Source: Torpedo marmorata (lineage: Eukaryota). From it: a stretch of DNA of 64,000 nt. The stretch lies in contig OZ360237.1 of assembly GCA_977017645.1 (NCBI GenBank), positions 19,158,001-19,222,000 of the forward strand, written 5' to 3'. Shown here in pieces: positions 22,697 through 62,900 of this stretch (within the stretch, counting starts at the first letter, position 1; each line of letters begins with the position of its first letter). A program made the translations under genes and the position numbers. A model generated the notes under the pieces. The model was not told the DNA's origin. It was given only the letters and a program-made list of their open reading frames with translations, and did no database searches.

Positions 22697-24564
22697 CCGT
22701 ATATTTCGGCGTATAAGTCGACCGGCAGATAAGTCGACCCCCTTTTTCAGCCTCATTTTAATGGTTTTATGGTATATCCGGCGTATAAGTCGATCCCCAA
22801 AAATCGCGATGCCTGAGATGTTGCGCATTGACCGGCGTATAAGTCGACCCTCAAAAAACGCGATGATTGAGCTGCTGGGCGTTGACCGGCGTATAGGTCG
22901 ACCAACAATGATCGCGCTGATTGAGCTGCTGGGCGTTGGCTGGAGGTGATTGTTATCATGGAGGGTCAATTGAAACGACGAAAGTATGAGGCGAGTTTTA
23001 AATTGAAAGTTATAGAAATGGCCAAGAAAACCAACAACTGTGCTGCTGCAAGAAAATTTGATATATACGAGAAGTTGGTAAGAGATTGGAGGAAGAAAGA
23101 AGATACTTTAAGAAAAATACCAAAAAGGCAATGTTCAATGAGAAGAGGAATCACTCGTTGGCCAGAGTTGGAAAATCACGTCGCAACATGGGTATGTGAA
23201 CAGAGGCAAGATTGCTACATAGTCACCCAAAATAAAATAAGAACATTTCCACTGAAGTGGGCAAAGTCGCACCCAGAACTCAGTAATGATTTTGAAGCTA
23301 CAGTAGGCTGGTGCAACCGTTTCATGAACAGGAAAAATCTGGTATTACGACAAAAAACTAAAATTGCTCAGAAACTACCAAAAGATCTTGATCATAAAGT
23401 TGTAAGTTTTCACCAGTTTATTTTACGTAACCGGCAGAAACACAAGTTTGCATTGGCAAATATTGGAAACATGGACGAAACCCCCATGAATTTTGACATG
23501 ATAGGCAATAGAACAGTGGAATGGAAAGGTGTGAAAACTGTGCAAACGAGGAGTACAGGACATGAAAGGACCAGGTTTACCGTGGTGTTATCGTGCATGG
23601 CCGACGGGACAAAGTTAAGACCCATGGTAATCTTCAAACGCAAACTTAAACCTAAAATAAATTTCCCAGCAGGTATTTTTGTACATTTTCATGAAAAAGG
23701 ATGGTTGGATGAAAATGGTGTAAAACTATGGATAGACAATGTGTGGAACAGGCGGCCAGGCGGTTTATGCAAGGAACGGAGTTTGCTGGTCTGGGATATG
23801 TTTCGTAGCTACTTAACTGAGAAGACTAAAAGTAGATTAGCACAACATAATACTTACATGGCGGTTATCCCGGGTGGTTTGACGTCTATATTGCAACCTC
23901 TTGATGTCTGCTTGAACAAGCCATTCAAAGACCATGTGCGTGAAGAGTGGAATACATGGATGTCGAGTGCAGAAAAATCCTTTACAAAAGGCGGGGCAAT
24001 GCGTGCTGCATCGCTTGATGTGCTGTGTGACTTCATGCTCAAGGCATGGGACAAAGTGAAAGTAGAGACTATAATAAAATCGTTTAAAAAGTGTGGTATC
24101 TCTTGTGCAATTGATGGCACGGAAGATGATTTACTGTGGGACACTGACGACGAAGCTGAAGACGCCTCATCAGATACAGACTGGGACCCGTACGATGACT
24201 GTTTAAACAGTGAGACCCCAGATGTGCTTGCCGAGATCTTTGCCTCAGACGATGATAGCGAAAGTGATTTTGAAGGGTTCTAAATGTCTTGTTGTTTTCA
24301 ATAAAAATGTCAATGAAAATTTGTTGCAGTCGGGTTTTTTTTTTGGTTTTTCAAGGGTCGACTTATACGCCGAATCGTGTTTTCAGGGGTCGACTTATAC
24401 GCCGAATCGTGTTTTCTGGGGTCGACTTATACGCCGAATCGGCGTGAACTCGATTTTGAGCTGATTTTAAGGTCTCAAAAGTATATCCGGCGTATAAGTC
24501 GACCCCCGTTTTTTGAGACATTTTTGAGGGTTTCAAGGGTCGACTTATACGCCGAAATATATGG
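22697..24564 (+). mobile_element. Full-length pogo-superfamily (Passer/POGK-like, DD35D) DNA transposon
   Basis: 27-bp TIRs CCGTATATTTCGGCGTATAAGTCGACC (1 mismatch), TA TSD at 22695-22696 and 24565-24566, intact transposase ORF. Confidence 0.95.
22958..24283 (+). CDS. pogo transposase (Brinker-type DBD, CENP-B HTH, DDE_1 with DD35D, acidic tail), 441 aa
   Basis: RRKYEASFKLKVIE; ATVGWCNRFMNR; NMDETPM…LVWD-35 aa-D(VCLNKPFK); no stops or frameshifts. Confidence 0.93.
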   Translation: MEGQLKRRKYEASFKLKVIEMAKKTNNCAAARKFDIYEKLVRDWRKKEDTLRKIPKRQCSMRRGITRWPELENHVATWVCEQRQDCYIVTQNKIRTFPLKWAKSHPELSNDFEATVGWCNRFMNRKNLVLRQKTKIAQKLPKDLDHKVVSFHQFILRNRQKHKFALANIGNMDETPMNFDMIGNRTVEWKGVKTVQTRSTGHERTRFTVVLSCMADGTKLRPMVIFKRKLKPKINFPAGIFVHFHEKGWLDENGVKLWIDNVWNRRPGGLCKERSLLVWDMFRSYLTEKTKSRLAQHNTYMAVIPGGLTSILQPLDVCLNKPFKDHVREEWNTWMSSAEKSFTKGGAMRAASLDVLCDFMLKAWDKVKVETIIKSFKKCGISCAIDGTEDDLLWDTDDEAEDASSDTDWDPYDDCLNSETPDVLAEIFASDDDSESDFEGF

Positions 24565-37550: not shown

Positions 37551-37591
37551 ATGTACTGATGATGCAGCTTCGTGTTTTGAAGAAGCACGAT

Positions 37592-40500
37592 TGTGGTAAA
37601 CCACTGTATGTGTGTTGTGGGGCTGGGGATAGGTTTGGACATGCCCTGCTGACTGTCCCGGTGACCCCTCTCACAATCCCCTTGAATAAAGGCCATTGTG
37701 CCACAACTCCTCCCCTCAGTCCGGGACAGATCAGCAGCTCGAATGTAGCTCCATTCTATATCTAATAAAAGCCTTTCAGTACAATACTACTTCCAGTCTT
37801 TTGGGAGTCATTGATAGGTGTATCAATTTTATTGGATATATTGTCAAATGGAGAGCGTCCTGAGACTGGACAAGCTGGACATCGATCCGCTGGCTCCAGA
37901 CGCCAGTAACGCTTTCGAACTCTGGTTAACCTGTTTCTAATCGTTTTTAAGGATGATCAAAGTGGAAGACGAGGACAGAAAACGCATGGTCCTCGTCTCT
38001 AGGGTAAGCCCCAGAGTCTACTCGACGATCCGAGATTTTCAGTCTTACGGGGACGCCATGGATGCCTTAAAACGGCTGTACATAATGCCTGTGAACTCAG
38101 TATACGCGAGGCACAGGCTAACGACGCGGCAGCAGCGGCCCGGGGAGCGATCACGGAATTCGTACGGGACATACAGTCGCTCGTACGGGCGTGCGATTGC
38201 AGGGCGCTGACGGCTGAGGAGCATGCAGAGCTGTTGGGGAGAGACACTTTCGTCACGGGGATAAGGTCAGTATATGTGCGCCAGCGGCTGCTGGAGCATG
38301 CTGACCTGACCTTTCGTTCGGCCGTTCAAATGGCCCATACGCTGGAGGCCGCGCTGCGGAACTCAGACGCTATGCAAGCGCGTGACCTCCAGCAGGCGCC
38401 ATGGATGGCCCTGACCCCCCACCCTGCCAGCGATCCGACTACCGCCGCCATCAGCCGCGACCTAACTGCCGCCGCCGCCGCCAGACGTGACCCGACTACC
38501 GCCGCCATCAGCCGCGAGCCCGAGAAATGTTATTTCTGCGGGCTCGAGAAACACCCCCGAAGACGCTGCCCTGCCCGAGACGCGACCTGCTCCAGCTGTG
38601 GCAAGAAAGGCCACTTCGCAAAGGCCTGCCGCTCAATGCCGCGAGCGGGTCCGAGCAGCGCCGCGTGCGAGATTCGGGGGCGACCATCTTACTTTTCGTC
38701 ACTTCCGGCATCCTATCCGCCCGCGGTTGCCAACACGTGCGAAGAATGGGGGTGGCCATCTTGGACCTCGGCATTTCCGGCGCCACCATCTTACTGCTCC
38801 GATGCCAACACGTGCGATCCACGGAGGCGGCCATCTTCTTCAACTCCGACGTCGGATCAAGATTACGAGCCTACACTGGCGTCGGTGACGCTCGATCAGA
38901 GTGCACCCCATCAATTATCGCGATCGATGATGGACATCCTGGTTGGAGGACACAAAACAAACTGCCTGTTCGACACAGGCAGTACAGAGAGTTTCATTCA
39001 CCCCGACACGGTACTGCGATGCCGGTAAGCCAAAGGGTTACCATGGCTTCCGGGTCGCACACAACAGACATCCGGGGGGGTTGTGTAGCGACGATTGTAG
39101 TACAGGGCACGGAATATCGGGACTTCTCGCTACTAGTTATGCCTCGACTGTGTGCGCCTGTACTACTGGGACTCGAGTTCCAGAGTCACTTACAGAGTGT
39201 TACAATGCAGTACGACGGGCCCCTTCCAGCGATTACCGTTGGTAACCACCAGTACCTTAAAAATACATCCCAGACTACCTGCGGCCTCTCCACCCTCAAC
39301 ATCTCTCCCCCATCGCTATTCGCCAACCTGACCACAGACTGTAAACCTGTGGCGACCAAGAGCAGGCGATACAGCGCAGGGGACAGGACATTTATTAATT
39401 CGGAGGTGAGGCGATTTCTTGGGGAAGGGATCATTGAACCAAGCACAAGTCCCTGGAGGGCCCAGGTAGTCGTGGTAAAGAATGGGAGTAAGAATAGGAT
39501 GGTGGTGGACTATACTCAGACGATTAACAGGTTCACGCAGCTGGACGCATACCCCCTTCCACGCATTGCGGATATGGTGAACGAGATAGCGCAATACAAG
39601 CTATTTTCTACCATAGACCTCAAATCGGCCTACCACCGGCTCCCTATTCGCCGGGAAGACCGCGCTTACACTGCCTTCGATGCGGACGGCAGGCTTTATC
39701 ATTTCCTGCGAGTCCCCTTTGGCGTCACTAACGGGGTATCCGTCTTCCAGAGGGAGATGGACAGGATAGTGGACCAGTTCGGTCTCAAAGCCACTTTCCC
39801 GTACCTGGACGACATCACTATCTGTTGTCACGATCGCCAGGACCACGATAACAACCTCCGGAAGTTCCTCCAGGCGGCCAAAGCACTTAACCTCACGTAC
39901 AATAAGGATAAGTGCGTGTTCGGGACCACCCGACTCGCCATCCTGGGGTGTGTCGTGGAGAACGGGGTCATCGGCCCCGACCCCGATCGCATGCGCCCCC
40001 TGTTGGAACTACCGCTTCCCCCACACCCTCAAAGCCCTCAAAAGGTGCTTGGGCTTCTTTTCGTACTACGCCCAGTGGGTCCCCAATTACGCAGATAAGG
40101 CCCGACCCCTAGTCAAGTCCACCACGTTTCCCCTTGCAGCGGAGGCAAGTGAGGCTTTCAGCCTCATAAAAGGGGACATTGCTAGAGCTGCAATGCATGC
40201 GGTGGACGAGTCCACTCCCTTCCAGGTAGAGAGTGACGTGTCTGACTTCGCACTGGCTGCTACCCTCAACCAGGCGGGAAGACCGGTGGCGTTCTTCTCC
40301 CGTACCCTCCAAGGCCCAGAAATTCGGCACTCTGCGGTGGAGAAAGAGGCCAAGGCCATAGTGGAAGCTATTCGGCACTGGAGGCACTATCTCGCCGGCA
40401 AAAGGTTTACTCTGCTGACTGACCAACGCTCAGTAGCGTTCATGTTTAACAATCAGCAGCGGGGTAAAATCAAAAAAGATAAAATCATGAAGTGGAGAAT

Positions 40501-42044
40501 CGAACTCTCCACCTACAACTACAACATACTGTACCGGCCCGGGAAGCTCAATGAGCCCTCCGATGCTCTATCCCGAGGGACGTGCGCTAGCGCACAGATC
40601 GACCGGCTGTACGCCCTCCACTGCCACCTCTGCCACCCCGGAGTTACCAGGCTGTTCCACTTTGTGAAGGCCCGTAACTTACCCTACTCCCTAGAGGAGG
40701 TCAAGACAATGACCAGCAGCTGCCGGGTCTGCGCTGAGTGCAAACCGCAATTCTATCGCCCTGACAAGGCACAGCTGGTCAAGGCCACCTGCCCCTTCGA
40801 GCGACTCAGTGTCGACTTCAAGGGCCCCCTCCCCTCCACCGACCGCAATGTGTACTTTCTCAATGTGATTGATGAGTACTCGCGGTTTCCCCTTTGCTAT
40901 CCCCTGCCCCGATACCTCGGCCATATCCGTCATTAAAGCTCTTCGCAAGATATTTACCCTATTTGGTTTCCCCAGCTATATACATAGCGACCGGAGATCC
41001 ACGTTCATGAGCGAAGAGCTACGACAATATCTGCTGGCCAGGGGTATTGCCACTAGTAGGACCACGGCATACAATCCACGGGGTAACGGACAAGTGGAAA
41101 GGGAGAACACCACTGTCTGGAAGGCCACGCTCTTGGCCCTCAAGTCCAAGGGATTGCCGGTCTCCCGCTGGCAAGAAGTCCTCCCCGAAGCCCTCCACTC
41201 TATTCAGTCCCTGTTGTGTACTTCTACAAACGCAACTCCTCACGAAAGACTCTTTTCCTTCCCTAGGAAGTCGACCACCGGGACCACCCTACCCGCATGG
41301 CTGACGTCCCCAGGACCGGTGCTGCCCCGCAAGCACCTTAGGAGTAATAAATATGCACCGATGGTTGAAAGGGTTCAGTTAGCCCATGCAAACCCCCAGT
41401 ACGCCTACGTGGTCTTCCCTGATGGGCGGGAAGACACCATCTCCATACGGGACCTGGCGCCCGCAGGAGCGCCGGAAACTGCCCTTGAACACCCCCTTAT
41501 TACAATTTCTCACCCCAACACGACACCACACCCTCCAACAATTTCAATGTTACCGGATGTTCCGGTACCGCAAATCAGACAGGAGGCAGCTCTACCGCCT
41601 CCCCCATCACCACAGGTACTATCGCCCACCCCATCACCACAGGTACTATCGTCCACCCCATCACCACAGGTACTGCGCAGATCGCAGCGTCGGACTCGAC
41701 CGCCTGACCGACTTGATCTGTAACTGTATATATCTTTGTACATAGTTCTGTAATGTTTTATTAGTGTTCACTTCACCCCGCTGGACTCTTTTTAAAAAAA
41801 AGGAGGGGTGAATGTGGTAAACCACTGTATGTGTGTTGTGGGGCTGGGGATAGGTTTGGACATGCCCTGCTGACTGTCCCGGTGACCCCTCCCACAATCC
41901 CCTTGAATAAAGGCCATTGTGCCACAACTCCTCCCCTCAGTCCGGGACAGATCAGCAGCTCGAATGTAGCTCCATTCTATATCCAATAAAAGCCTTTGTA
42001 CAATACTACTTCCAGTCTTTTGGGAGTCATTGATAGGTGTATCA
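37592..42044 (+). mobile_element. Full-length Gypsy (Mag-like) LTR retrotransposon, mildly degenerate
   Basis: LTRs at 37592-37825 and 41813-42044 (TG…CA; 2 substitutions and a 2-bp indel seen), TSD ACGAT, purine tract AAAAGGAGGGGTGAA, and gag-PR-RT-RH-IN order. Confidence 0.96.
37848..41723 (+). pseudogene. Gypsy gag-pol with a stop and frameshifts
   Basis: Gag knuckles CYFCGLEKHPRRRC and CSSCGKKGHFAKAC; protease LFDTGS; RT FPYLDD; RNase H ESDVSD…AVEKEA; integrase HCHLCHPG…CRVC, SVDFKGP, HSD, NGQVER. Confidence 0.92.
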
Positions 42045-42199
42045 ACGATATGCCCTATTTTCTGGGAACACGTTTCCCCCCCCCCCCCCCATAACATGGG
42101 AGTTGCCTGCTCTTGCCATTCACGGAATTTTGACAACCAGTATCAGTGTCAAGCAGAAAGGTTATCCCTCCTGCTCAGGCATGCAATTTGATTGGACCA

Positions 42200-44127: not shown

Positions 44128-44525
44128 TATTACGGTGACTTCGATCCACCAATAGTCACCTGGAGGCTAAGTGTGGTCCTTGTCTTTGACGCGTTTTAAT
44201 CAATTTACTAACAAAGTCCAATATGTTCAAAAACCTTTATTTACACACATGACTTGCAGTAATCTTCAATGACTTTAATATAAACAGTTCTTGTAAACGA
44301 TGTATGATGAGTTCCTTTAAATAGTTCTTTAAACAATTCCAAAACGATATGAAAACACTGTAGAACGATGTAAAAGTTATAAAACGATATAAAACGGTCA
44401 ATAAAGATGTGGAGACCTCACTCACCCTCCAAACATCTTATTCTTTCCTTTTCTCTCTCTCTCTGCTTGAATATTCACGCTTCCTCCGTCACTCCTAATG
44501 GCTCTGCGCACCCTCCACCGCGCAT

Positions 44526-44607
44526 ACTACAATTCCCAGCCTCCCACGCGCACAATGACGTCATTCCATACTGCGCATGCGCCCGTCGGCACTCCAGCGC
44601 ATGCGCA
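44526..44607. promoter_or_regulatory. Cluster of ZNF143/THAP11, CRE and NRF1 motifs in the BEL LTR (repeated at ~49831-49912)
   Basis: ACTACAATTCCCAGC at 44526-44540, TGACGTCA at 44556-44563, TGCGCATGCGC at 44572-44582 and GCGCATGCGCA at ~44597-44607. Confidence 0.65.
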
Positions 44608-44614
44608 GAGCACA

Positions 44615-44775
44615 GAACGGGCCGATGACGGCCCACAGACAACGCGAGCTCTCCGAACGGGCCGAGGACGGCCTACCGACAACGCGAGCGCTCCGAACGG
44701 GCCGAGGATGGTCTACCGACAACGCGAGCGCTCCGAACGGGCCGAGGACGGCCTACAGAACAACGCGAGCGCTCC
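44615..44775. repeat. 40-bp CpG-rich tandem repeat, ~4 units, in the BEL LTR U3 (also ~49920-50080)
   Basis: Unit GAACGGGCCGAGGACGGCCTACCGACAACGCGAGCGCTCC. Confidence 0.9.
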
Positions 44776-45039
44776 AAGGCCCGACGAGACATCGGAGCGC
44801 CGCAACAACTGTAAGTTAACGAGCCTACGGCTCTTACACCGGCCCCTAATTATTATAATTAGACGTAATGTCTTGAATAATAATTACACTATAAATAATA
44901 ATAACCATAACATACAAAACAATACAAATCTTCTTTCTTCCTTCTTCATAAATCTAGAGTTTACCATAACTCTGATTCAACAAAAGTCTGTAACCTGTGA
45001 AATATACAACAACAAATAAAGTCAGTTTATATTTATCAA

Positions 45040-45220
45040 AGTTCCTCCGTCTCCAACAAACGACAGACCTTGTTAATAGGTCTGTTTAGAAAACCAGTCT
45101 TAACTTTAATTCGCACTTGACGCACAAGTCCTCTTTGTCTTGAAAAGTCTCAATAATCTTTTCCAAGTAACCAGGAATTTCTTGAAGTTGAACCATCCAT
45201 AACAATCACAATGTCTCTCC
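45040..45220 (-). pseudogene. Frameshifted BEL integrase C-terminal (DUF5641-like) remnant
   Basis: Manual translation: DIVIVMDGSTSRNSWLLGK/IIETFQD/RGLVRQVRIKVKTGFLNRPINKVCRLLE. Confidence 0.8.
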
Positions 45221-45257
45221 AAAGTTCTTCCATCTCTATAATCTTTGAGTTAAAACG

Positions 45258-47123
45258 TCAACCAGTAAACCTCAAATCCTCCTCAGACAAAATAGATACA
45301 GTTTTTCTTTTGAATTTAACATAAGGCACTTCTTCAGCATGTCGTTTCACTTTATTCCTTTCTTCAGTATTCCACTTCTCATGTGAAGAATTTAAACTCT
45401 TAGAATTAGAATTAGAATATTTATCTGATTCTTTCAATTTTAAACAGGTCTGTTTAACCACTCTGGTTTCTATTGCTCTTTCCTGCAATTCTAAATCCAA
45501 TTTTGCAACTTTCAATTCAGTCTCAGCTCCTTCCGAGAAATTAATTATTTGTTCTGAAGTCAAAATATCATGTGATACATGGATATTTTCATTGTCAATC
45601 CTGTTGCGGCAAACTTGAAATTTTTTAATTTCTTCATCTTGTTTGTTACATTTTTGCAATGCAATATCACAATCTTTCTGTATTGTTAATTGTTTTGTGT
45701 TATTAACCAATAACTTGTTCTCTTTTAAAACATTAATCTCTTCCTCCAACCTTTTACATTGTGATAATGCTGAATCTCTTTCCTCGATAACTGTATTCAT
45801 TTCTTCAGCAGTTATTCTTTTCTTCCGCTTTCTGACTTTGCGAGTTTTACTTACAATTAAATCTTTCTGTTTACTGTTTTCTTGATTATCTAATATTTCC
45901 AATTCCCCTTTCAACATTTTGTTCTTTGAATTCAATTGCATTAAATTATCGTTCATATTATTCTTTATTCCATCAGCACAATTTTCTGTGTTCTCCAGTT
46001 TTACATCACATTGCAATAATTCTTCATTAGCTTTGTCTGTTGTAATCTCTGAACTACAAAATCTACATTCAGATTTGTTTTCAATCACTTGTTTTATTCT
46101 TGTATCTGATTCAATTACACATGAATGATCAATAGTATTATTTGCAACATCTAATACTTCACTTTCATCCATTTCTGACGAAATTAATTCCTTCAATGTT
46201 GTTTTAAATATCATTGATTTATTTTCACATTGATCTGTTTTCTTTTCTTCATAAGTGATTTTCTTATTCACGGTTTTTTGCTCTTCGCTTAACTCTTCAA
46301 CTTTCTCAACCGAAATTCTATTAATATTTATCGCTAACTGTTCCTGAGCAATATCATTATTTCTTTCCAATGGTCCATTGATTGTCCAACCAAACTTGGT
46401 TCTAATAGCGTAAGGTCCATTCCTTTTACTCTCTATTACTTCTTTCGGTTCCAAAACCTTTGGCACATCTGAACCAATCAGCATTTCTATCTTAGAATTA
46501 ATTTCAGGTAAATAAACCTTCCACAGATAAGCTAAATGATGGATATCCCTTCGATGAGGAATATTTCCTTCATTCACAGGCATAGTCTTCTGAGTATATA
46601 CACTTGGAAGATCACAAAATTTTTTGTCATCCAATCCAGCAACCTCTAAGCCTGAAACAATGTTAGTTTCAACAATCTTTTCTTGTCCCATGGTTTTTAA
46701 CATAATTTTTGATCTTCTTCCTTGAATATTAAGTTTATTCATTAGTCCTTCCGTGCAAAAAGATGCAGTGCTGCCTGGGTCTAGAAATGCATATGTTTTT
46801 ACTATTACATCCCCTTTCTTGGCCTTGACTTGTACAGGCACTATTGAAAGTTTGCAGTTATCCACACCGGCCCCAGTAAGACCACTTGTCTGAACCGAGG
46901 TTATAACATTATTTTCTGTTGTTTCCTTTGTTTCTGTTTGCTCTTTTTCCAATTCCTTGTTTCTGTTATGGATATGCAAAATTCTAGGATGTTTCAAATT
47001 GCATATGTTACAATTAATTCGCTTCTCGCAGTTTTTACTGATGTGCCCTTTACACAGACAGCTAAAACATATTCCATTTTCCTTTAAGAAAGCGATCTTT
47101 TCCTTATGTTCCTTCTTTTCCAA
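45258..47123 (-). CDS. BEL/Pao zinc knuckles and aspartic protease fused to a MIPOL1-like coiled-coil region
   Basis: CFSCLCKGHISKNC, CNICNLKHPRILH, AFLDPGSTASF, LIGSD and PYAIRTKFGWTINGP, then ~340 aa of non-pol sequence including RITAEEMNTVIEERDSALSQCKRLEEEI. Confidence 0.8.
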   Translation of the reverse strand: MEKKEHKEKIAFLKENGICFSCLCKGHISKNCEKRINCNICNLKHPRILHIHNRNKELEKEQTETKETTENNVITSVQTSGLTGAGVDNCKLSIVPVQVKAKKGDVIVKTYAFLDPGSTASFCTEGLMNKLNIQGRRSKIMLKTMGQEKIVETNIVSGLEVAGLDDKKFCDLPSVYTQKTMPVNEGNIPHRRDIHHLAYLWKVYLPEINSKIEMLIGSDVPKVLEPKEVIESKRNGPYAIRTKFGWTINGPLERNNDIAQEQLAININRISVEKVEELSEEQKTVNKKITYEEKKTDQCENKSMIFKTTLKELISSEMDESEVLDVANNTIDHSCVIESDTRIKQVIENKSECRFCSSEITTDKANEELLQCDVKLENTENCADGIKNNMNDNLMQLNSKNKMLKGELEILDNQENSKQKDLIVSKTRKVRKRKKRITAEEMNTVIEERDSALSQCKRLEEEINVLKENKLLVNNTKQLTIQKDCDIALQKCNKQDEEIKKFQVCRNRIDNENIHVSHDILTSEQIINFSEGAETELKVAKLDLELQERAIETRVVKQTCLKLKESDKYSNSNSKSLNSSHEKWNTEERNKVKRHAEEVPYVKFKRKTVSILSEEDLRFTG

Positions 47124-49047
47124 TCGTAAAACACATTTCTAAAGTATGTCCACCTTTACAGAACAAACAACTCTTTTCATTAGGCAAACTTTCCTTTTCC
47201 TTATTTATAACTGACACATTAGTAGCATATGTACTCCTTTTCACTTTCAGACTAGACTGTGTGTTAGACTTCCTTACATCTTTGCCCATTGAATTATCTC
47301 TGGCATTTCCATATAGTGGATCTGTTTCAACGTACACCCGTCGTTCAAGAAAATTTACCAAATCCTTTAAGGTAGTTTTTCGACCGTAATCTACTTGTAA
47401 ATCACAAGCCAAATCCCTCCATCTATCCCATACCTTGTAAGGTAATTTTTCTAAAATGATTCGCATATTACTATGCACATCAAGCTCACGAATACTATCG
47501 ATTTCTTCCATAGCATTACAACATCCTCTTAAAAACAAAGTATATTCTTGCAGAGCCTTTACATCATTTTGTTTTATTGATGTCCATTTAAGAGCTTTAT
47601 CCATATAAGCTAAAGCAATTCGATGCTTGTTGCCAAAATATTGTTCCAATAAAGCCTTAGCTTTGTCTAATCCTCTTCCTGAAGACATTTGTTTACAACT
47701 TTTTACCAGTTCTTTTGGATGTCCCTTTGTGAACATTTCCAAATAATAAAGACATTCATCACGATCTTGGCATTTATCTTCAATATTGCGTTTGAAAGAT
47801 CTCATAAATGATTGATATTGAAGTGGATCACCATCAAAAGTTTGTATCTCTTTCTTGGGTAAAGAAGAGAGAGACTGTAACTGAAACAATGATGCAGCAA
47901 TTTCATTTTGTCTTTCCTTGGACGACAATACATTGCTCTGTTCACCGTCTCTTGTTGCATGCAATGTATCTGGAAACCTCACTGGTGTAGTTTCTTCCAT
48001 ATTTCTGATGCTTGACTCATATAACAAAGAATTTACTTCGTTCGACCGGACCCAAGCCGCAGCTTTGCTTTCAGATGTTACTAATGGTACATGTGACTCG
48101 ATACCAATATGCTCTTGAAAGGTTTGTCCTTGTATATGTAAGTTTTGTATCCTTGGTTCTAAAATATCTATCCTTTTGGTTGGTTTCTTTTCCTGTGACT
48201 CCTTTTTTAAATATGACCTTTTATTATCAGACAATTTAGATAATTTACTGCTAGCACCAGATACCATTGAGCCTTCTATTGCTTTCTTTTCTGCTTTGGC
48301 AATAGCAATGTTTGCTTCCAGCTCCTGTTGTTCTTTTTTCTGCCTTAGCTGCTCCTTCTTTTGTCTTAGCTGCTCCATTAGCTGCTCCTCCTTTTGTCTT
48401 AGCTGCTCCTTTAGCTGCTTCTCATTTTGTCTTAGCTGCTCCTCCTCTTCTTCCAAAATATATTTATCCTGAAGCATTTTTTGTTGTGCAAGAAGAGCGG
48501 CCAATTTAACATCAATCTTTGTACGTGATGACGCAGAACTTGAAGTACGAGAAACTCTGGAGCTCGAACCAGAACTTCTTTTGCTTCTCCTGCTTTCTGC
48601 ATTTGAGACACTGTCACTTGCTTGTATTTCGTCCTGCAGTTCATATGCTGTCTTCATACTTACCTCTTTATCCAATTTAAATTGTATATCCTTTGCATCT
48701 TCAACCACTTTAATTTCTTCAACATTTGGTGACACAATTTCAGCCATTTCCAAGTTATCTTCTTGTTCATCTAATGAAGCTGCCTCTTCATCCTTTGCCA
48801 GCTTCAATCTTTCGATAAGAACCTTTTTATTTCCACTTATGTCCTTTTTCAGTCGCTTCAATTCTTCTTTAATATCCGAAACCTTCATGTCTTCAATACG
48901 TTGGTCCTCAACAGCAACATCAGCGGTTGCTGCGTCAGCTGCTGATATATCAGTAGCTGCTGTATCAGTGGCTGCTGCGGCCATTTTACTCGTCTTGTTC
49001 CTCTTTCCTTCAAGCATACACAACACTAGCCAAACAACAGTCTCCAA
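47104..49047 (-). CDS. BEL/Pao Gag with N-terminal SAP-like domain, coiled coil and DUF1759-like capsid region
   Basis: MKVSDIKEELKRLKKDISGNKKVLIERL (SAP-like); LPKKEIQTFDGDPLQYQSF (BEL Gag); CLFCKGGHTLEMC. Likely start is the ATG at 48984. A single-base frameshift in a T run joins it to the next ORF. Confidence 0.85.
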   Translation of the reverse strand: METVVWLVLCMLEGKRNKTSKMAAAATDTAATDISAADAATADVAVEDQRIEDMKVSDIKEELKRLKKDISGNKKVLIERLKLAKDEEAASLDEQEDNLEMAEIVSPNVEEIKVVEDAKDIQFKLDKEVSMKTAYELQDEIQASDSVSNAESRRSKRSSGSSSRVSRTSSSASSRTKIDVKLAALLAQQKMLQDKYILEEEEEQLRQNEKQLKEQLRQKEEQLMEQLRQKKEQLRQKKEQQELEANIAIAKAEKKAIEGSMVSGASSKLSKLSDNKRSYLKKESQEKKPTKRIDILEPRIQNLHIQGQTFQEHIGIESHVPLVTSESKAAAWVRSNEVNSLLYESSIRNMEETTPVRFPDTLHATRDGEQSNVLSSKERQNEIAASLFQLQSLSSLPKKEIQTFDGDPLQYQSFMRSFKRNIEDKCQDRDECLYYLEMFTKGHPKELVKSCKQMSSGRGLDKAKALLEQYFGNKHRIALAYMDKALKWTSIKQNDVKALQEYTLFLRGCCNAMEEIDSIRELDVHSNMRIILEKLPYKVWDRWRDLACDLQVDYGRKTTLKDLVNFLERRVYVETDPLYGNARDNSMGKDVRKSNTQSSLKVKRSTYATNVSVINKEKESLPNEKSCLFCKGGHTLEMCFTIGKEGT

Positions 49048-50875
49048 TGGACCAGCGGCAGCAATTCCAATCTGTGTTCTTACTTGCTAAAGATACACAG
49101 AAGGAGTCCACAGACTTATGCCTACCACTTCAAATGACTGTAATGTGCTGCAATCCACAAACGAGTTTCAACCACAACATCCGTCACTAATATCACTGAT
49201 TTTCCAAAAATAGTTTCTCCAACGTATTTATAGGACACTTTACTATAAGATTTGAAGCTTTAAATCCCTCTCTGGCTGTTATTCATGGCAGATGGAAGTG
49301 GATTACAAACTGCCCCCAACTCGAGGCATCTCCAAGATGGCCACCATTTTATATCAGTCCAAAGCACAGAGAGTTTTTTCTATCTTCTTTCTTACAAACT
49401 TCTGTTCCAAACAGCCAGCCCTTTATTGACAATTTTACGGTGACTTCGATCCACCAATAGTCACCTGGAGGCTAAGTGTGGTCCTTGTCTTTGACGCGTT
49501 TTAATCAATTTACTAACAAAGTCCAATATGTTCAAAAACCTTTATTTACACACATGACTTGCAGTAATCTTCAATGACTTTAATATAAACAGTTCTTGTA
49601 AACGATGTATGATGAGTTCCTTTAAATAGTTCTTTAAACAATTCCAAAACGATATGAAAACACTGTAGAACGATGTAAAAGTTATAAAACGATATAAAAC
49701 GGTCAATAAAGATGTGGAGACCTCACTCACCCTCCAAACATCTTATTCTTTCCTTTTCTCTCTCTCTCTGCTTGAATATTCACGCTTCCTCCGTCACTCC
49801 TAATGGCTCTGCGCACCCTCCACCGCGCATACTACAATTCCCAGCCTCCCACGCGCACAATGACGTCATTCCATACTGCGCATGCGCCCGTCGGCACTCC
49901 AGCGCATGCGCAGAGCACAGAACGGGCCGATGACGGCCCACAGACAACGCGAGCTCTCCGAGCGGGCCGAGGACGGCCTACCGACAACGCGAGCGCTCCG
50001 AACGGGCCGAGGATGGTCTACCGACAACGCGAGCGCTCCGAACGGGCCGAGGACGGCCTACAGAACAACGCGAGCGCTCCAAGGCCCGACGAGACATCGG
50101 AGCGCCGCAACAACTGTAAGTTAACGAGCCTACGGCTCTTACACATACCATTTTCCGTCCTCATTATTTGCTTCACCTGCATGTAGGCTTTAAGTAATTT
50201 GTGCACAAGCACACCTAGGTCTTTGAACATCAACACTACCCAAACACAACATTTAAAAATACTCTGCATTTCTGTTCTATGCACCAAAGAAAATAATGTC
50301 ACATTTTTCCACCTTACTTTCCATGAACCATGTTCATTCTTGTCTCTACTCACGAACCTTTCTACTGTTAGCACCTTTGGAAATATGACATTTCATCTGC
50401 TCAGTCAAATGTAGATTGTGAAAAGCCAAGGTCAAGCACTGATCCTTGTAGTACCCCACAAGTTACAATCTGACAAACTGAAAAGGACCCATTTATTTCA
50501 TCTTATCCTTTACAACACAGTGAGGCCATTCAGCCTCCAGAGTCCGTACAAGTTCCCAGCACATGCCCATCAAATCCCCTTTGACTTTTTTTTTGGAGCA
50601 TTGAAAACGCAGACGAAATGTACAAATTCCAGAAAGACAGCACTCGCTTTTTTCTTCTCGGTCCATGTCAGTACAATACTCGAAATTCCCTTTGCTGTAA
50701 CCTCGTTAAACAGCCTCCATGTTTGACCTTATCGTATGCCTTCTGGACATTTAAATACACCACATCTGATTGTTCCCCATTGTATATTAATTTTGTTAGA
50801 TTGTTAAGAAGCAATAGCATCTTAACAATCAAACAAAATTAATATACAATGGGGAACAAACAAGCAGTAACATAA

Positions 50876-53800
50876 TAATATAAAAATAGTTGGTCTTAAA
50901 GAAGAAGAAGAGGGCAAGATATGATTGCTTTTATTAAAACTTGGATACCTGATGTACTGGGTCCAGATAAGTTTGATCATACAATTGAAATTGAAAGAGC
51001 ACACAGGGCTCTAAGAGCAAAGCCGTCACAAGATCAAAATCCGCATTCAATTTTAATTAAATTCCTGCATTATCAAGATAGGGAGAAAGTTTTACAACTG
51101 GCGATGGAGCAAGCAAGACGTGGCCCTTTGATATATAGAGGCCAGAATTCTTTTTTATCCTGATATAAGTGCTGACTTAATGAAGAGAAGGAAGGAATTC
51201 AACCCAGCTAAAAAGATCCTTTGGGAGAAGGGCTACAGATTTGTACTGCGACATCCTGCGACCTTGAAGCTCTTTCTACCAGACCAACAAAATAAATTCT
51301 TTACAAACTATACTCTGGCAGAGGAATTTGCTAACGAACCTCCGCAGTCTTCGGAGGAACGTTAGAAAAGAAAAAGTTTTACAATTGGTGATGGAACAAC
51401 TTATATCAGTTTGTAAATTTGGTAAAACTGATGATTGACTATTTTGTGTTTGTATTTCTTTTCTTTTAAAATAATACATATATATAAAACATTGTTATAC
51501 CAGGGGGGTTGGGGGGTGGGAGAATGAGGTCCTGACTACTATTGTAATCATGTGTACTTTTGCGACTTTGGTCGTGACCCGTAAAATAGAGGGGGGTAGC
51601 GCTGTATATTTTAAAAGCGCTAGAGGGGATGTAGTTAGCTTGGTTTTTTTACTTTTGTGGAAGGGGGGGGAGTGTATTCTTTAATTTTATATTTTTTCTT
51701 TTCTATTTGTATGGATTGCTGGGGGGGACATATGTTGACGCGATGGAGATTGAAGAATGAAGTAAAAGGGAGAGAGTTAGGGGTCTGGGCTGGAAGAGGT
51801 AACATTAAAAGGAATGAAATATGTAATTTAAAATGAGTAATATAGTAAGATTTTTGAACTTTAATATTAATGGGATAAATGGAAATATTAAGAGGAAAAG
51901 AGTATTAGCGTATATTAAAAAATTGGGTGTTGATATGGCTTTTTTACAAGAGACACATTTAACAGAGAAAGAACATTTGAAATTAAAAAGAGACTGGGTG
52001 GGGTATGTAGCGGCTTCTTCATTTAATTCTAAGGCAAGGGGTGTGGCAATCTTAATAAAAAAGAATCTTCCAATTATAATTCAGAATGTTGTGACGGATC
52101 CTGTAGGGAGATATGTAATGATACATTGTCAAATATATTCAGAATTTTGGACTTTTTTGAATATATATGCTCCCAATATGGATGATGATAAGTTTATTCA
52201 AGAGACTTTTCTTAATATAGCGGAAGCGCTTGAGAATATTATAATAGGGGGAGACTTCAACTTTTGTTTAGATCTGGTCTTAGATAAGTCTACAAGAGGA
52301 GTGAAGAGAACTAAGGCAGTGAAAGCTACGCTGGTATTAATGAAAGATTTAAACTTGATAGATGCTTGGAGAAGAATTCATCCTAGGGATAAAGATTTTT
52401 CATTTTATTCTAGTAGGCATGATTCTTATTCCAGAATTGATTTATTTTTAGCTTCAGCTCAACTGCAAGACAGAATTCTAGAAGCAGAGTATAAAGCAAG
52501 GATTTTGTCTGATCATTCACCTTTATTGATGACAATTGTTCTACCTGATAAAGAAAAATCGATATATAGATGGAGATTGAATCCTTTATTATTAAAAAGA
52601 ACAGATTTTTGTGATTTTATAAGGAGGCAAATTCAGATATTTTGTGAAACAAATCTAAACTCCGTGCCTGATAAATTTGTAATATGGGAAACTTTGAAAG
52701 TATATTTAAGAGGTCAAATCATAAGTTATTCTTCAAAAATTAAAAAGGAATATATGAGAGAAATAGACCAATTAGAAAAAGAAATAACAATTTTAGATAA
52801 AGATTTACAAAAGAGGAGCTCTGTAGATCAACGTAGACAATTAATTAATAAAAGACTTCAATATAACAGACTTATAGAACGGAGAAGATTATTATAAGAA
52901 CTAAGCAAAGATATTATGAGTTAGGTGAACGTTCACATAAAGTACTAGCATGGCAATTAAAAACAGAACAGGCATCAAGAACAATTAATGCAGTTAGAAG
53001 CGAGGCTGATGTTATTAGCTATAAACCTCAAATAATAAATGATTCTTTTAAAAATTTTTATTCTGATTTATATAAATCAGAGTCTTGCAAGATGATAGTA
53101 AAATCGATGGATATTTATCACAGATAAATTTACCAAGATTAAATATGAAAGAGCAACTAGAATTAAGTACCCAGTTTACGCAGAAGGAGGTGAAAGATGC
53201 AATGAGTAAACTACAAAGTAATAAAGCACCGGGAGAGGATGGTTTTCTGCCAGAGTTTTATAAAGAGTTTAAGGATTTATTAATTCCTGTGTTTATGGAT
53301 ATGTTACAGCAAGCGTCTGCGACTCATACACTTCCAGAATCTTTTTCTACAGCAATAATTACTGTAATACTAAAAAAAGACAGGGACCCATTGAAACCTT
53401 CATCATAGACCAATTTCATTACTGAATGAATTAAGATTGTAGCAAAAATCTTGGCCAATAGGATAACAAAATTTTTGCCAAAATTAGTAAATATGGATCA
53501 AACAGGCTTTATAAAAAAAAAGACAAGCAGCTGACAATGTAGCAAGGTTACTTAGTATTGTTCATTTAGCTCAAAAAAGAAAAGTACTAAGTGTTGTGGT
53601 GGCACAAGATGCAGAGAAAGCTTTTGATAGACTGGAGTGGGATTTTTTGTTTAAAGTATTGGAGAAATTTGGATTTGGGAGGATTTATATAGATTGGATT
53701 AAAGCATTATACAATACTCCAAAAGCTAAAGTAGTGACTAACGGACAAATATCAACTTCATTTTGTTTGACAAGATCTAGCCGACAAGGGTGCCCATTGT

Positions 53801-55962
53801 CACCAGCTTTATTTATATTAGCTATAGAACCACTGGCAGAGGCAATTAGAAGTGATTTGGCAATTAAGGGATTTGCAGTTGGTCAAGAGCAACATAAAAT
53901 CAGCTTATTTGCGGACAATGTTTTAATATACTTGACAGAGCCTGAGACCTCTCTGCAAAGATTGCATTTTAAATTGGAGGAATATGGGAAAGTTTCCGGT
54001 TATAAGATAAACTGGGATAAAATTGAAATTATGCCTCTCACAGAGGGAGATTATACTTTATGTAAAAGAAGTACTCAGTTTAAATGGCCACATAATGGGA
54101 TAAAATATCTCGGGATTCGAACAGATAATAATTTTAAAAATCTATATAAATGGAATTATCTACCATTACTTAAAAAGATTAAAGAAGATTTGGAAAAATT
54201 GATTAATTTACCTATTACATTGATAGGAAGAGTTAATTGTATTAAAATGAATATATTTCCGAGGATACAGTATTTGTATCAAACTATACCTATTTTATTA
54301 CCACAGGGTTTTTTCCAGGATTTAAATAAACAAGTGCGAAAATTTCTTTGGAGAGGTAAAATGTCAAGAGTTTCTATGGAACCTTTAACATGGAAATATG
54401 AATTGGGAGGTTTACAACTCCCTAATTTTAAAAATTATTATCGAGCGGCACAAATGAGATTTGTTACTTCTCTTTTTGAAAGTGAAGGAATACCTGCATG
54501 GGTTGGAATAGAGCTTCGAGAAATAGGAGAAAAGGTACCAGAAGAATTTATATATAAATGGAATTCAAAATTATTGACAGGTATTAAAGAAACACCGTTA
54601 CTAAAACATTTGATTAATGCTTGGAATAAGATTAATGATGAGATAGGGATGAAAGGAACTATATCACCTAAAACGTCATTGATACAGAATAATCTTATAC
54701 CTTTTACAAAAGATAATCAATTTTTAAACATATGGTCACAGAAAGGAATAAAGAAGATAGAAGATTGTTATGAAGGGAACCAATTGATGTCGTTTACACA
54801 ATTACAAAACAAATATGGAATACCGAATAATACTCTTTTTTGTTATTTTCAATTAAGAGGTTATTTAAGGGAAAAACTAGGTCCGGATATGTTGTTACAA
54901 GATTGTAGTGAGGTAGAAACCCTTATTAGGAAAGGAAATATTTAAAAATTTACTTCTATAATATATTCTTTGTTACAAATGGGAGCTTTAAAACAAGGAC
55001 TTCATAAATCTAGACAAAGATGGGAGCAAGATCTTAATGTTATAATTGATGGAAAAAGATGGTCGGATTTATGTCAAGATAGTATGACAATACTATTAAC
55101 GTAAGATATAGATTAGTACAGTATAATTTTTTACATCAACTACCGGTATATCTTACACGACAAAAATTGAATAAGATAAAATCTACTTTATCAAATAAGT
55201 GTTTTAGATGTGGTGAAGAGGAGGGAACTTTTTTACATTCAACATGGTTATGCCTTAAAGTAAAATGTTTTTGGATAGAGTTAGGGAATCGGTTAAAACA
55301 AATTACAGGTGTTACATTTCCACAGAATCCTGATTTATTTTTATTAGGGAATGTGGAAGGAACGAGACCAAAGTTGAAGTTATCAACATGTCAATTGAAA
55401 TTTGTAAAAATTGCTTTAGCAGTAGCAAGGAAGTGCATAGCAGTAACTTGGAAATCAGATACAAATTTAGGCATGGATAGATGGAATATAGAGATGCGGA
55501 GTTGTATTCCATTGGAAAAAATAACATATAATATGAGAAATAAATATGGGATATTTTTGCAAATTTGGCGTCCATATATCCAATCATTAGGTATGAATAT
55601 TTAAATGTGTTGCTCTACATCCTAGACCCTGTTGACTCTCTCAAATTTAAAGAATAAATATTGTTGAATACCACGCGTCGAGCCGTGGACCCAGCAGCGA
55701 TCCGTACAGATGTTTTTAATAAATAATACCAATGCCTTCTTTTCTGTTCTTTTTTTTAGTTTTTTTAGTAAGGGGAGGGAATTAAAGGGAGGGGAAGGGT
55801 GGAGGGTGGGGTAGCAGTATTATAGAGGGTGGGTTAAGGGATGGGTTAGATACACTGTAATACAAATTATGTTTTTTATTTACTGGAATTAATGATGTAT
55901 ATTACGTATGTTGTACTACTGTGAGAAAATTCAAAATTTTAAATAAAATATTCAAAAAAAAA
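50876..55962 (+). mobile_element. Near-full-length L1 LINE (5'-truncated within ORF1, disrupted ORF2)
   Basis: ORF1 C-terminus (NNIKIVGL, EIERAHR); ORF2 from 51833 with APE (NINGIN, LQETH, GGDFN, SDHSP), RT (DAEKAFD, RQGCPLSP, LFADN) and CCHC. Poly(A) and 14-bp TSD AAGCAGTAACATAA (50862-50875 and 55964-55977). Confidence 0.95.
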
Positions 55963-59940: not shown

Positions 59941-62900
59941 AATCAGAATTTATTGTCATGAACAAGTCATGAAATTCGATGTTTTGCGGCAGCATCATAG
60001 TGCAAACATTCATATTATAACCATCTTACGACATTACTATAAAAAAAAAATATATAAATAATAGTGCACGAAAAGTAAGGCAGTGTCTTTGGTTCATTGA
60101 TTATTCAGGAATCTGATGGCAGCGGGGAAGAAGCTGTCCTTGTGCTGTTTGTTGAGTGCTCGACTTTAGGCTCCTGTACCTTTTTCCCGGTGGTAGCAGA
60201 GTGAAGAGGGCATGGCCTGGGTGGTGGGGGTCTTTGAGGATAGAGGCTGGTTTTTTAAGACACCGCCTCATGGAGATGTCCTCGATGGAGTGAAGTTTGG
60301 TGTCTGTGATGTCACAGGCTGAGTTAACAACCCTCTGGAGTTTACTCTTGTCCTGAGAGTTGGAGCCTCCATACCAGGCAGTGATGCAACCAGCCAGAAT
60401 GCTCTCCACGGTACACCTGTAGAAGTTTACGAGAGTCTTCGGTGACATATCGAATCTCCTCAGACACCTCACAAAGTATAGCCGCTGGTGAGCCTTCTTT
60501 GTGATTGCATCAACGTGGAGACTCCAGGACAGGTCCTCGGAGATGTTGACACCCAGGAATTTGAAGTTCTTGACCCTCTCCACTACTGAGCCCTCGATGA
60601 GGACTGGGTCGTGTTCCCCTGACTTCCTCCTGAAGTCCACAATCTTCTCCTTGGTTTTGCTGACTTTGACCGCAAGGTTGTTGTCATTACACCATTCAAC
60701 GAGCTGATCTATCTCCCTCCTGTATGCTTCCTCATTGCCGTTTGTGATTCTGCCGACAACTGTGGTGTCATCAGCAAACTTGTAGATGGCATTGGAATTG
60801 TGCCTGGCCACACAGTCATGGGTGTATAAACGTGTAGAGCAGCGGGCTAAGCACGCATTCTTGGGGTGCGCCTGTGTTGATAGTGAGGAGGAGACGTTGT
60901 TTCCAATTCGTACTGACTGTGGTCTTCCAAAGTCAAGGATCCAGTTGCAGAGTGGGGTACAGAGGCCTAGAGTTTGTAGCTTCTTGACCAGCACTGAGGG
61001 AATAATGGTATTGAAGGCCGAGCTGTAGTCGATGAAGAGCAGCCGTATGTATGAATTGCTGTTTTCGAGGTGATCCAGAGCTGAGTGGAGAGCCAGCGAT
61101 ATTGCATCTGCTGTGGAGCGATTGTGACGATAGGCGAATTGCAGTGGGTTCAGATCTTTGCTTAGGTATGTGTTAATTCTAGCCATGACCAGCCTCTCAA
61201 AGCATTTAATCACAGTAGAAGTTAGTGCTACTGGGCGGTAGTCGTTGAGGCAGCTCACACTACTCTTCTTGGGTACCGGGATGATTGATGCCCTTTTGAA
61301 GCAGGTTGGAACCTCTGACTGCCGCAAAGAGAGGTTGAAAATGTCCGTGAACACTCCGGCTAGTTGGTTGGCGCAGATTTTCAGTACCCTGCTAGGTACG
61401 TCGTCAGGGCCTGACGCCTTGTGAAGTTTCACCCTCTTGAATGATGTTCTGACGTCGCCCTCAGAGACAGATATCACAGGGTCCTCAGCATTTTAAGGGA
61501 TTCTAGTAGGCACTGTTTGGTGGTTATTCTCAAAGCGGGCATAGAAGGTGTTCAGCTCATCTGGTAGTGAAGCATCACAGCCGTCTATTGTGTTCGCCCT
61601 CGCTTTGTAGGCTGTAATGGCCTGCACTCCCTGCCATAGCTGGCATGTCTCTGTCTTTAGCTTCCTCCGGAATTGCCACTTTGCTTCAGAGATGGCCTTC
61701 CGCAGGTCGTGCCTGGACTTCTTGTAAAGATCCCGATGCCGGCTTAAACGCCCTTGTTCTCGTCCTCAGCAGGTTGCGAATTCTCTGATTCATCCAGGGC
61801 TACTGGTTGGGGAACACCCAGTATTTGCGCGTGGGCACACACTCATCCACGCAGGTCTTGATGAAGTCGGTGACACCTGTTGCATATTCATTCAGGTCTA
61901 TGGATGAGTTCTTGAATATGTTCCAGTCCACTGATTCAAAGCAGTCCTGCAGACGCTCCTCCGCCTCCCTCGACCAAACCTTCGCCATCCTCACCACTGG
62001 TGCTGTGGTCTTCAGTCTCTGCTTGTACGCCGGGAGTTGAAGTACAGCCAGGTGATCAGACTTGCCGAAGTGCGGTCGTAGTATGGCTCGTTATGCGTTC
62101 TTCATGGTGGTGTAGTTGTGTTGGTTCCCCTGGTCTCGCATGTGACGTGTTGGTGGTAGTTTGTAAGAGACTTCTTCAGGTTGGCCTGATTGAAGTCTCC
62201 CACAATGATCGGGAAGGCATCAGGATGTGCTGTCTCATGGCTGTTTATCACAGTGCTCAGTCCCTCCAGTGCCAGCCTAAAGTTAGCCTTGGGCGGAATG
62301 TACACTGCGACCAGGACGATGGCGGTGAACTCCCTCGGCAGGTAGAATGGGCGACACTTGATCGCCAGATGTTCTAGGTTAGGGGAACAGGACTGGGACA
62401 TGACTGTCAAGTCTGTCCACCACGATGAATTGATGATGACTCAAACGCCGCCTCCCCTGGTTGTTCCGTCAGCGCGATGGAAGGTATAGCCCTTGGGCTG
62501 CAGCACCGTGTCCGGAATGTCCGCGTTTAGCCACGTTTCCGTAAAGCACATCGCACGGCACTCCCTGATAACTCTCTGATGTTGAAGTCTGGCTTGGAGT
62601 TCATCAAGTTTGTTCTCCAAGGATTGTACGTTGGCCAGGAGGATGGTAGGGAGCGGAAGCTTCAGGTCCCAGCTTGACCTGTAGCCCCTCTCTGCGTCCA
62701 CGTGGTCGGGTCTTCTTTACTTGGCCCGTGGGTCCGTTGCTGATAGTTCCCGCGGTGTTTAAATGGTCCGTGTGCTGTCCCTTTAAATTCTCCGCGATGT
62801 TTAAGTGTGCTGAGTGCCTACTGTGTGTGACTCCCGTGAAGTTTAAATGGCCCATTCTCTGGCTGTTTAAAACTCCCGCGGTGTTGTTGTTGTACGTGCG

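Follow-up and report, generated by a model that had tools for sequence, protein, structure and literature searches.

A leader complementary to the LTR at the primer position of a chromodomain-less animal Ty3/Gypsy lineage: likely self-priming, possibly with a second role at the poly(A) signal

Reverse transcription primed by an element's own RNA has been demonstrated only for the yeast element Tf1, and has been assigned to chromoviruses and to one plant Copia lineage, as far as the accessible text of this literature goes. In Tf1, the duplex is 11 nt long and RNase H cuts between bases 11 and 12 (PMC7175516); the mechanism, the "pretzel" structure and the chromodomain are described in the accessible parts of PMC7175516 and bioRxiv 2022.12.06.519325. 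Tj1 (PMC4600332), the start sites of Tf2 (PMC5341516) and Skipper (PMC5006619) are treated elsewhere, a list of self-primers is found in PMC6934838, and PMC13524379 and PMC11042837 complete the references for comparison. From LTR complementarity, self-priming was predicted in the Tcn1 clade of mosses and fungi and in the Copia TAR lineage (Houba, Osr-1), in the part of PMC6317226 that is accessible. In open texts, that is subscription papers, Repbase and GyDB entries and supplements apart, we found no published account of self-priming in a chromodomain-less animal Gypsy lineage.

The window, a stretch of 64,000 nucleotides of Torpedo marmorata DNA, contains an LTR element whose features are collected in Table 1. 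It is of Ty3/Gypsy type, with LTRs, a target-site duplication, a polypurine tract and the domain order PR-RT-RH-IN. The two LTRs differ by 2 substitutions and one 2-nt indel (234 versus 232 nt). The gag-pol region of this copy is disrupted by one stop and several frameshifts, and env is absent; relatives encode a single gag-pol frame of about 1,200-1,340 aa. The closest named protein relatives are those of rays and catsharks (RT identity 72-85%), and no relative of the element was found in the viral contigs searched. The first-pass annotation had described the element as Mag-like. Mag elements use tRNA primers. Two CCHC arrays agree with that description, as does the chromodomain result: neither Chromo nor SH3_Tf2-1 was matched in the window integrase piece or in three full-length relatives, and both were also absent from the precomputed domains among the 120 homologues listed. 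On this basis the element is a candidate member of Mag, and the label would hold for gag only. Two CCHC arrays, the Mag criterion, are common to Micropia/Mdg3 (PMC2577118, accessible text).

Table 1. Features of the element in the window, with the basis of each assignment
Feature	Position	Strand	Basis
LTR element, whole	4,453 nt	+	paired LTRs and target-site duplication
Left target-site duplication ACGAT	37587..37591	+	identical 5-mer at 42045-42049
5' LTR, TG...CA, 234 nt	37592..37825	+	LTR comparison
Upstream AATAAA, not part of the duplex	37685..37690	+	sequence; 3' LTR counterpart 41906
Initiator-like CCATTCT, A at 37753 = candidate transcription start	37751..37757	+	inferred from sequence
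LTR arm = predicted self-primer; AATAAA at 37764-37769	37757..37770	+	pairing, covariation
Second stem, U5 hairpin: GCCT 37771-37774 with AGGT 37816-37819	37771..37819	+	predicted fold
Leader arm = inferred primer-binding site, LTR end +2	37827..37840	+	pairing, covariation, fold-backs
gag-protease-RT-RNase H-integrase region	37848..41723	+	domain matches; protease identified in another copy
Two CCHC zinc knuckles in gag	38528..38629	+	translation
Polypurine tract	41794..41812	+	sequence
3' LTR, 232 nt; perfect leader complement at 41978-41991	41813..42044	+	LTR comparison
Right target-site duplication ACGAT	42045..42049	+	5-mer match

Elsewhere in the window, a very young LTR element lies on the minus strand (44130-50144), with 710-nt repeats that are 99.86% identical. 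One of its frames carries SAP and DUF1759 (BEL/Pao-type gag), another of 625 aa is without Pfam match; no RT match was obtained in either frame, and no TGG directly follows the repeat. At 22925-24283, 51827-54945 and 60101-61492, frames of Tigger/pogo-type transposase and of LINE endonuclease and RT belong to ordinary repeats.

One base after the 5' LTR (an A, 37826) begins the leader TTTTATTGGATATA. The 3' LTR contains its exact reverse complement, TATATCCAATAAAA, a site that ends in AATAAAA, and the 5' LTR copy of this site reads TATATCTAATAAAA, where one C>T leads to a G-U pair with the leader. The 14-nt complementarity noticed in the first-pass annotation was confirmed in both letters and coordinates. 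With the leader held fixed, the anchored complement reached a maximum of 10 nt in 20,000 base shuffles of the LTR, against 14 nt observed. The hexamer AATAAA in the arm of the window is predicted to be unpaired with a probability of 0.02 when the leader is present and of 0.87-0.99 when it is not. The whole region is only moderately stable (z -2.11, 7/200 shuffles equally good). Because this energy is unremarkable, the case presented here is built on position and covariation. In 30 close copies fetched, 29 could be scored (one lacked the anchor), of which 24 pair 14/14, 2 contain G-U and 3 a mismatch; among these copies, the C>T of the window is private to its 5' LTR.

Covariation was followed at three depths, of which the family itself is the shallowest. 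An exact junction pattern in which the variable leader letters were left open gave 313 matches in the genome, and 40 copies were taken among the matches listed, picked to cover the leader variants seen. In the 39 copies with a scorable leader, three leader variants are present in several copies, and each is matched by its own LTR site. The majority leader GGTTATA pairs with the LTR site TATAACC. The window leader GGATATA pairs with TATATCC, and GGTCATA with TATGACC in 4/4 copies, while one more distant copy combines the leader AGCTATA with the LTR site TATAGCT. Gag identity is 94-98% between leader sub-lineages, and 90% for the AGCTATA copy. The difference between GGTTATA and GGATATA amounts to an A-U to U-A swap, for which no G-U intermediate is possible. 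Rare leader variants were found in 8 copies: one is compensated (the AGCTATA copy), another has no scorable site, and six lack compensation, which would be expected of copies decaying after insertion. One copy with the majority leader has two G-U pairs (L308), and a search for a leader variant at one position returned a single copy, uncompensated.

Sister families were retrieved by searching the genome with three gag homologues, which led to 80 loci. A perfect duplex of at least 13 nt is present in 40 of 50 loci, and one of at least 12 nt in 29 of the other 30. Between these families the register is unchanged and the letters are different. Family copies and fold-back loci included, more than ten distinct leaders exist within one genome, each following its own LTR. 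The covariation of leader and LTR to which the first-pass annotation had looked appears in sister families as compensation, not as loss. LTR ends of the own-genome elements fetched were backed by paired LTRs in 8/9, cleanly in 5.

Outside this genome, 88 loci were collected from metagenome and genome contigs, with RT identities mostly of 43-67%; 37 of them were without a usable gag 5' flank. A perfect complement of at least 11 nt was present in 40 of the 51 scorable loci, where shuffles gave means of 6-7.5 nt and single maxima of up to 13. The other 11/51 fall below 11 nt, and about seven of these keep the layout with mismatches, as judged by eye. At one locus with a short flank (L060), the layout was not seen.

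Figures across families come from 37 representatives with distinct duplexes, 28 from outside (one of them from the short-flank set) and 9 from the own genome. They were selected for having the duplex and some are close kin, so that all 37-family figures given here are conditional on this selection. Duplexes of the lineage are 11-19 nt long. At positions -1 to -12, pairing is 99% Watson-Crick in the 37 representatives, versus 22-39% when one arm is slid by 1-3; pairing across families, at positions 6-12, is 51% Watson-Crick. Past 15-16 nt, pairing weakens. The leader arm occupies the primer position in 37/37. A G-C pair stands at arm position -10 in 33/37 families, with the window family as an exception, and may be a recognition point.

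In a quick RT tree, 48 rows formed one group (SH-aLRT 99) versus two distant RTs. Part of the tree are named sequences from Oculina, Actinostola, Xenia, Trichuris and Ischnura, known here from proteins alone. The tree was made without Tf1, sushi, Mag, SURL or Gulliver references, and elements bearing SH3_Tf2-1 gave an RT in 1/7 tried. Some elements of the lineage (L161-L167) lie in metagenome contigs filed as bacterial genomes; a eukaryotic lineage inside such contigs points to host contamination of the bins.

The absence of a tRNA primer-binding site, first noticed in the window copy, extends to the representatives of the lineage. A TGG within the first 5 leader nt was found in 0/37 representative families, and the longest tRNA complement of the 9 own-genome leaders was 5-7 nt, in a search of 46 tRNA sequences covering only 12 anticodons. 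The window leader does contain a TGG, at 37833-37835; it was considered as a shifted tRNA site and rejected, being 8 nt from the LTR end and missing in several sister leaders. Elements of the same genome with SH3_Tf2-1 matches had been meant as a sushi control, a use that was dropped on account of their TGG-type site, and they were kept as a negative control. In this Gypsy group, 16 regions were fetched and 13 had a repeat pair; every resolved LTR end showed a TGG-type site, and self-complements at the repeat ends reached 9 nt at most. One could suppose that a tRNA fragment or another host RNA primes at the leader and that the LTR match is secondary, given that half-tRNA primers are known in some Copia lineages (PMC6317226, accessible text) and that the tRNAs searched represent 12 anticodons. 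However, such a primer would have to fit leaders whose tRNA complements are this short and which, numbering more than ten in a single genome, are each matched to their own LTR. We hold it to be extremely improbable.

A further line of evidence comes from fold-back insertions, in which the sequence runs through the LTR end and the leader and then continues into an inverted copy of the LTR part that precedes the arm. The genome contains 22 such junctions turning at the duplex, and 0 of the reversed pattern; a search restricted to the window's own sub-lineage found 0. These 22 and the 313 family matches come from patterns of unequal breadth, from which no rate is derivable. In the 20 loci examined, five leader variants are represented and two loci share a breakpoint. 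The LTR site was read by script in 12/20, and all 12 pair 14/14. The inverted part reaches the left LTR end in 14/20 loci, and in 6/20 it switches to internal sequence after about 50-100 nt. Matching 5-bp duplications were present at both ends of 5/10 extended loci, plus three LTR-only inserts; since the duplications enclose them, these fold-backs arose before integration. The LTR-only inserts with 5-bp duplications are L356, L341 and L355, and L356 forms a complete palindrome, having a left end on either side. At another locus (L339 / L366), a rearranged insertion with matching 5-bp duplications shows three LTR starts at LTR position 179-184, which is the predicted cut, with a 5-nt microhomology with gag at the junctions. 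Second breakpoints of the fold-backs are scattered over the LTR; four distinct ones are located within 172-192, near the predicted cut at 179/180. Such products would be expected on the side if the self-primer is copied onto the end of plus-strand strong-stop DNA. Ordinary template switching, to which any inverted repeat of 14 nt might be prone, could also give rise to them.

These sequence comparisons suggest that a Ty3/Gypsy lineage primes itself, with the 14 nt that follow the LTR as its likely primer-binding site. Our main reading, which we would place at about three chances in four, is a Tf1-like mechanism: the RNA 5' end pairs with the leader, is cleaved behind the A-run and serves to prime reverse transcription. 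If Tf1 is taken as the model, the transcript would begin shortly before the LTR arm, near 37753, and its 5' end would pair with the leader. Cleavage would fall after 37770, the last base of the arm, beside the GCCT stem, and would probably be the work of the element's RT/RNase H; the freed 3'-OH would prime minus-strand DNA through U5. A copy of the primer would then be made in plus-strand strong-stop DNA. Leader and LTR would thereby stay matched, and this DNA could fold back on its own LTR. The fixed position, the covariation at three depths, the missing TGG site and the fold-back errors together make self-priming well supported as a reading of the sequence.

Other parts of the LTR can be set beside this scheme. 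The four bases 3' of the arm are GCCT or ACCT in 29/37 families, and post-arm bases pair in U5 in 27/37, versus 7.5 +/- 2.3 in shuffles; in the predicted fold, this second stem (GCCT/AGGT in the window) stacks against the duplex just where the cut would fall. An initiator-like motif occurs upstream of the arm in own-genome families. The exact YYANWYY is at the expected place in 10/37 families and 4/28 outside the genome, a weak enrichment, and the core ANTY, a motif chosen after seeing the data, is found at -18 to -16 in 22/37.

The self-primer need not be the capped 5' end. It might be supplied by the 3' LTR site of the same or of a co-packaged RNA, or by a long RNA started upstream: the site is present in both LTRs, and in the 14/20 fold-backs that reach the left end, the whole U3 and the site are joined to inverted U5, which is the geometry of a long primer. 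The same 14 loci are explained, however, by copying of a hairpin intermediate, and the fading of pairing beyond 15-16 nt is expected near an RNA 5' end. Moreover, an RNA cut at the 3' copy would lose the repeat on which the first strand transfer depends; only another RNA could then provide it. We consider this origin of the primer unlikely, and retain priming by the folded 5' end.

Less firmly, the same helix would conceal the 5' LTR poly(A) signal, while that of the 3' LTR would stay open. The arm contains AATAAA in 16/37 families, ATTAAA in 9/37 and neither in 12/37; seven of these 12 have a weak variant and 5 have none of those checked. A hexamer in U5 outside the arm is present in 5/37 families. 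The first-pass annotation had left the choice between self-priming, masking of AATAAA in the 5' LTR, or both. Self-priming emerges well supported at the sequence level, and masking, which folding predicts and which fits 25/37 families, fails as a sole role in 12/37, where the duplex is kept with neither AATAAA nor ATTAAA in the arm. That the helix serves only to hide the 5' signal, priming being ensured by some other, unseen mechanism, would account for the frequency of both hexamers in the arms, for a hexamer predicted to be paired only with the leader present, and for the A-rich arm end being the most conserved part of the arm. It would not account for perfect duplexes in families devoid of either hexamer, five of them even of weak variants, nor for the five families with a U5 hexamer lying outside the arm. 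Masking is also insufficient because the partner strand is always at LTR end +2, where minus-strand synthesis must begin, in 37/37 families that have no other primer site. We judge it very unlikely that masking is all there is, and give about even odds to masking as a second role of a priming duplex.

An upstream AATAAA is present within 150 nt before the arm in 8/9 own-genome families. In the window, the upstream AATAAAGGCC (37685-37695) resembles the arm end AATAAAAGCC, and a site of this kind is located 75-97 nt before the last ten bases of the arm in 8/9 own-genome families, and rarely outside. In the 3' LTR, the upstream AATAAA would, if used, terminate the RNA before the arm. Poly(A)-tailed retrocopies were tried as a marker of the cleavage site and abandoned, the one match being unrelated DNA; none was found for the upstream hexamer.

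The feature is real and conserved, and looks like a known mechanism in variant form, perhaps with two roles. A broader picture, tentative and to our mind a little short of an even bet, is that of a large animal-wide Gypsy lineage separate from Tf1/sushi that invented self-priming independently, in which a poly(A) signal is the primer, the helix first silences the 5' site and is later cleaved next to a stacked stem, and errors are kept as fold-backs. If this were true, tRNA-free priming would be common in animals, the protein relatives being from sharks, rays, corals, a nematode and an insect, and the combination of primer and poly(A) signal in a single helix would solve the two-LTR polyadenylation problem compactly. 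Self-primed elements would escape tools that require a tRNA site, and would lie beyond control by tRNA fragments. The matter bears on hairpin-first versus tRNA-first priming, a question raised in PMC3601003 (accessible text), and natural sequence variants make the self-priming model easy to test. Among the Gypsy clades described from molluscs and an annelid (PMC6238403, PMC8220671; accessible text), the unplaced MolGy and LGF clades are possible homes for the lineage, and the supplements of PMC6238403 may name it.

With Tf1 and Tf2 of Schizosaccharomyces pombe, Tj1, Tosmo1-3 and the Tf1/sushi chromoviruses, the element shares the Ty3/Gypsy domain order, a post-LTR complement and the lack of a tRNA site. 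Unlike Tf1/sushi, its lineage has no chromodomain, possesses two CCHC arrays and lives in animal hosts. Compared with Tf1, the duplex is of 11-19 nt, its end usually holds a poly(A) hexamer, and the stem next to the arm is of another kind. As exact Watson-Crick runs in the 37 families, the two side duplexes of the pretzel did not rise above chance, the mean longest complement being 3.95/3.81 nt versus 4.08/3.85 nt in shuffled sequences. With chromodomain and pretzel missing, we do not file the element in Tf1/sushi, although it would work like Tf1. In Tcn1 and the Copia TAR lineage, self-priming is predicted alike, but these are chromovirus and Copia elements of plants and fungi, not animal Gypsy. 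The lineage resembles Mag (A, B and C clades, SURL) and Micropia/Mdg3 in having no chromodomain, two CCHC arrays, a single gag-pol frame and a wide animal range. In retroviruses, RNA structure can occlude the poly(A) signal of the 5' LTR, as does the HIV-1 polyA hairpin. The helix proposed here would likewise hide AAUAAA near the RNA 5' end; in contrast to the HIV-1 hairpin, its partner strand is outside the LTR, at the primer position, and the helix is therefore possible only at the 5' end.
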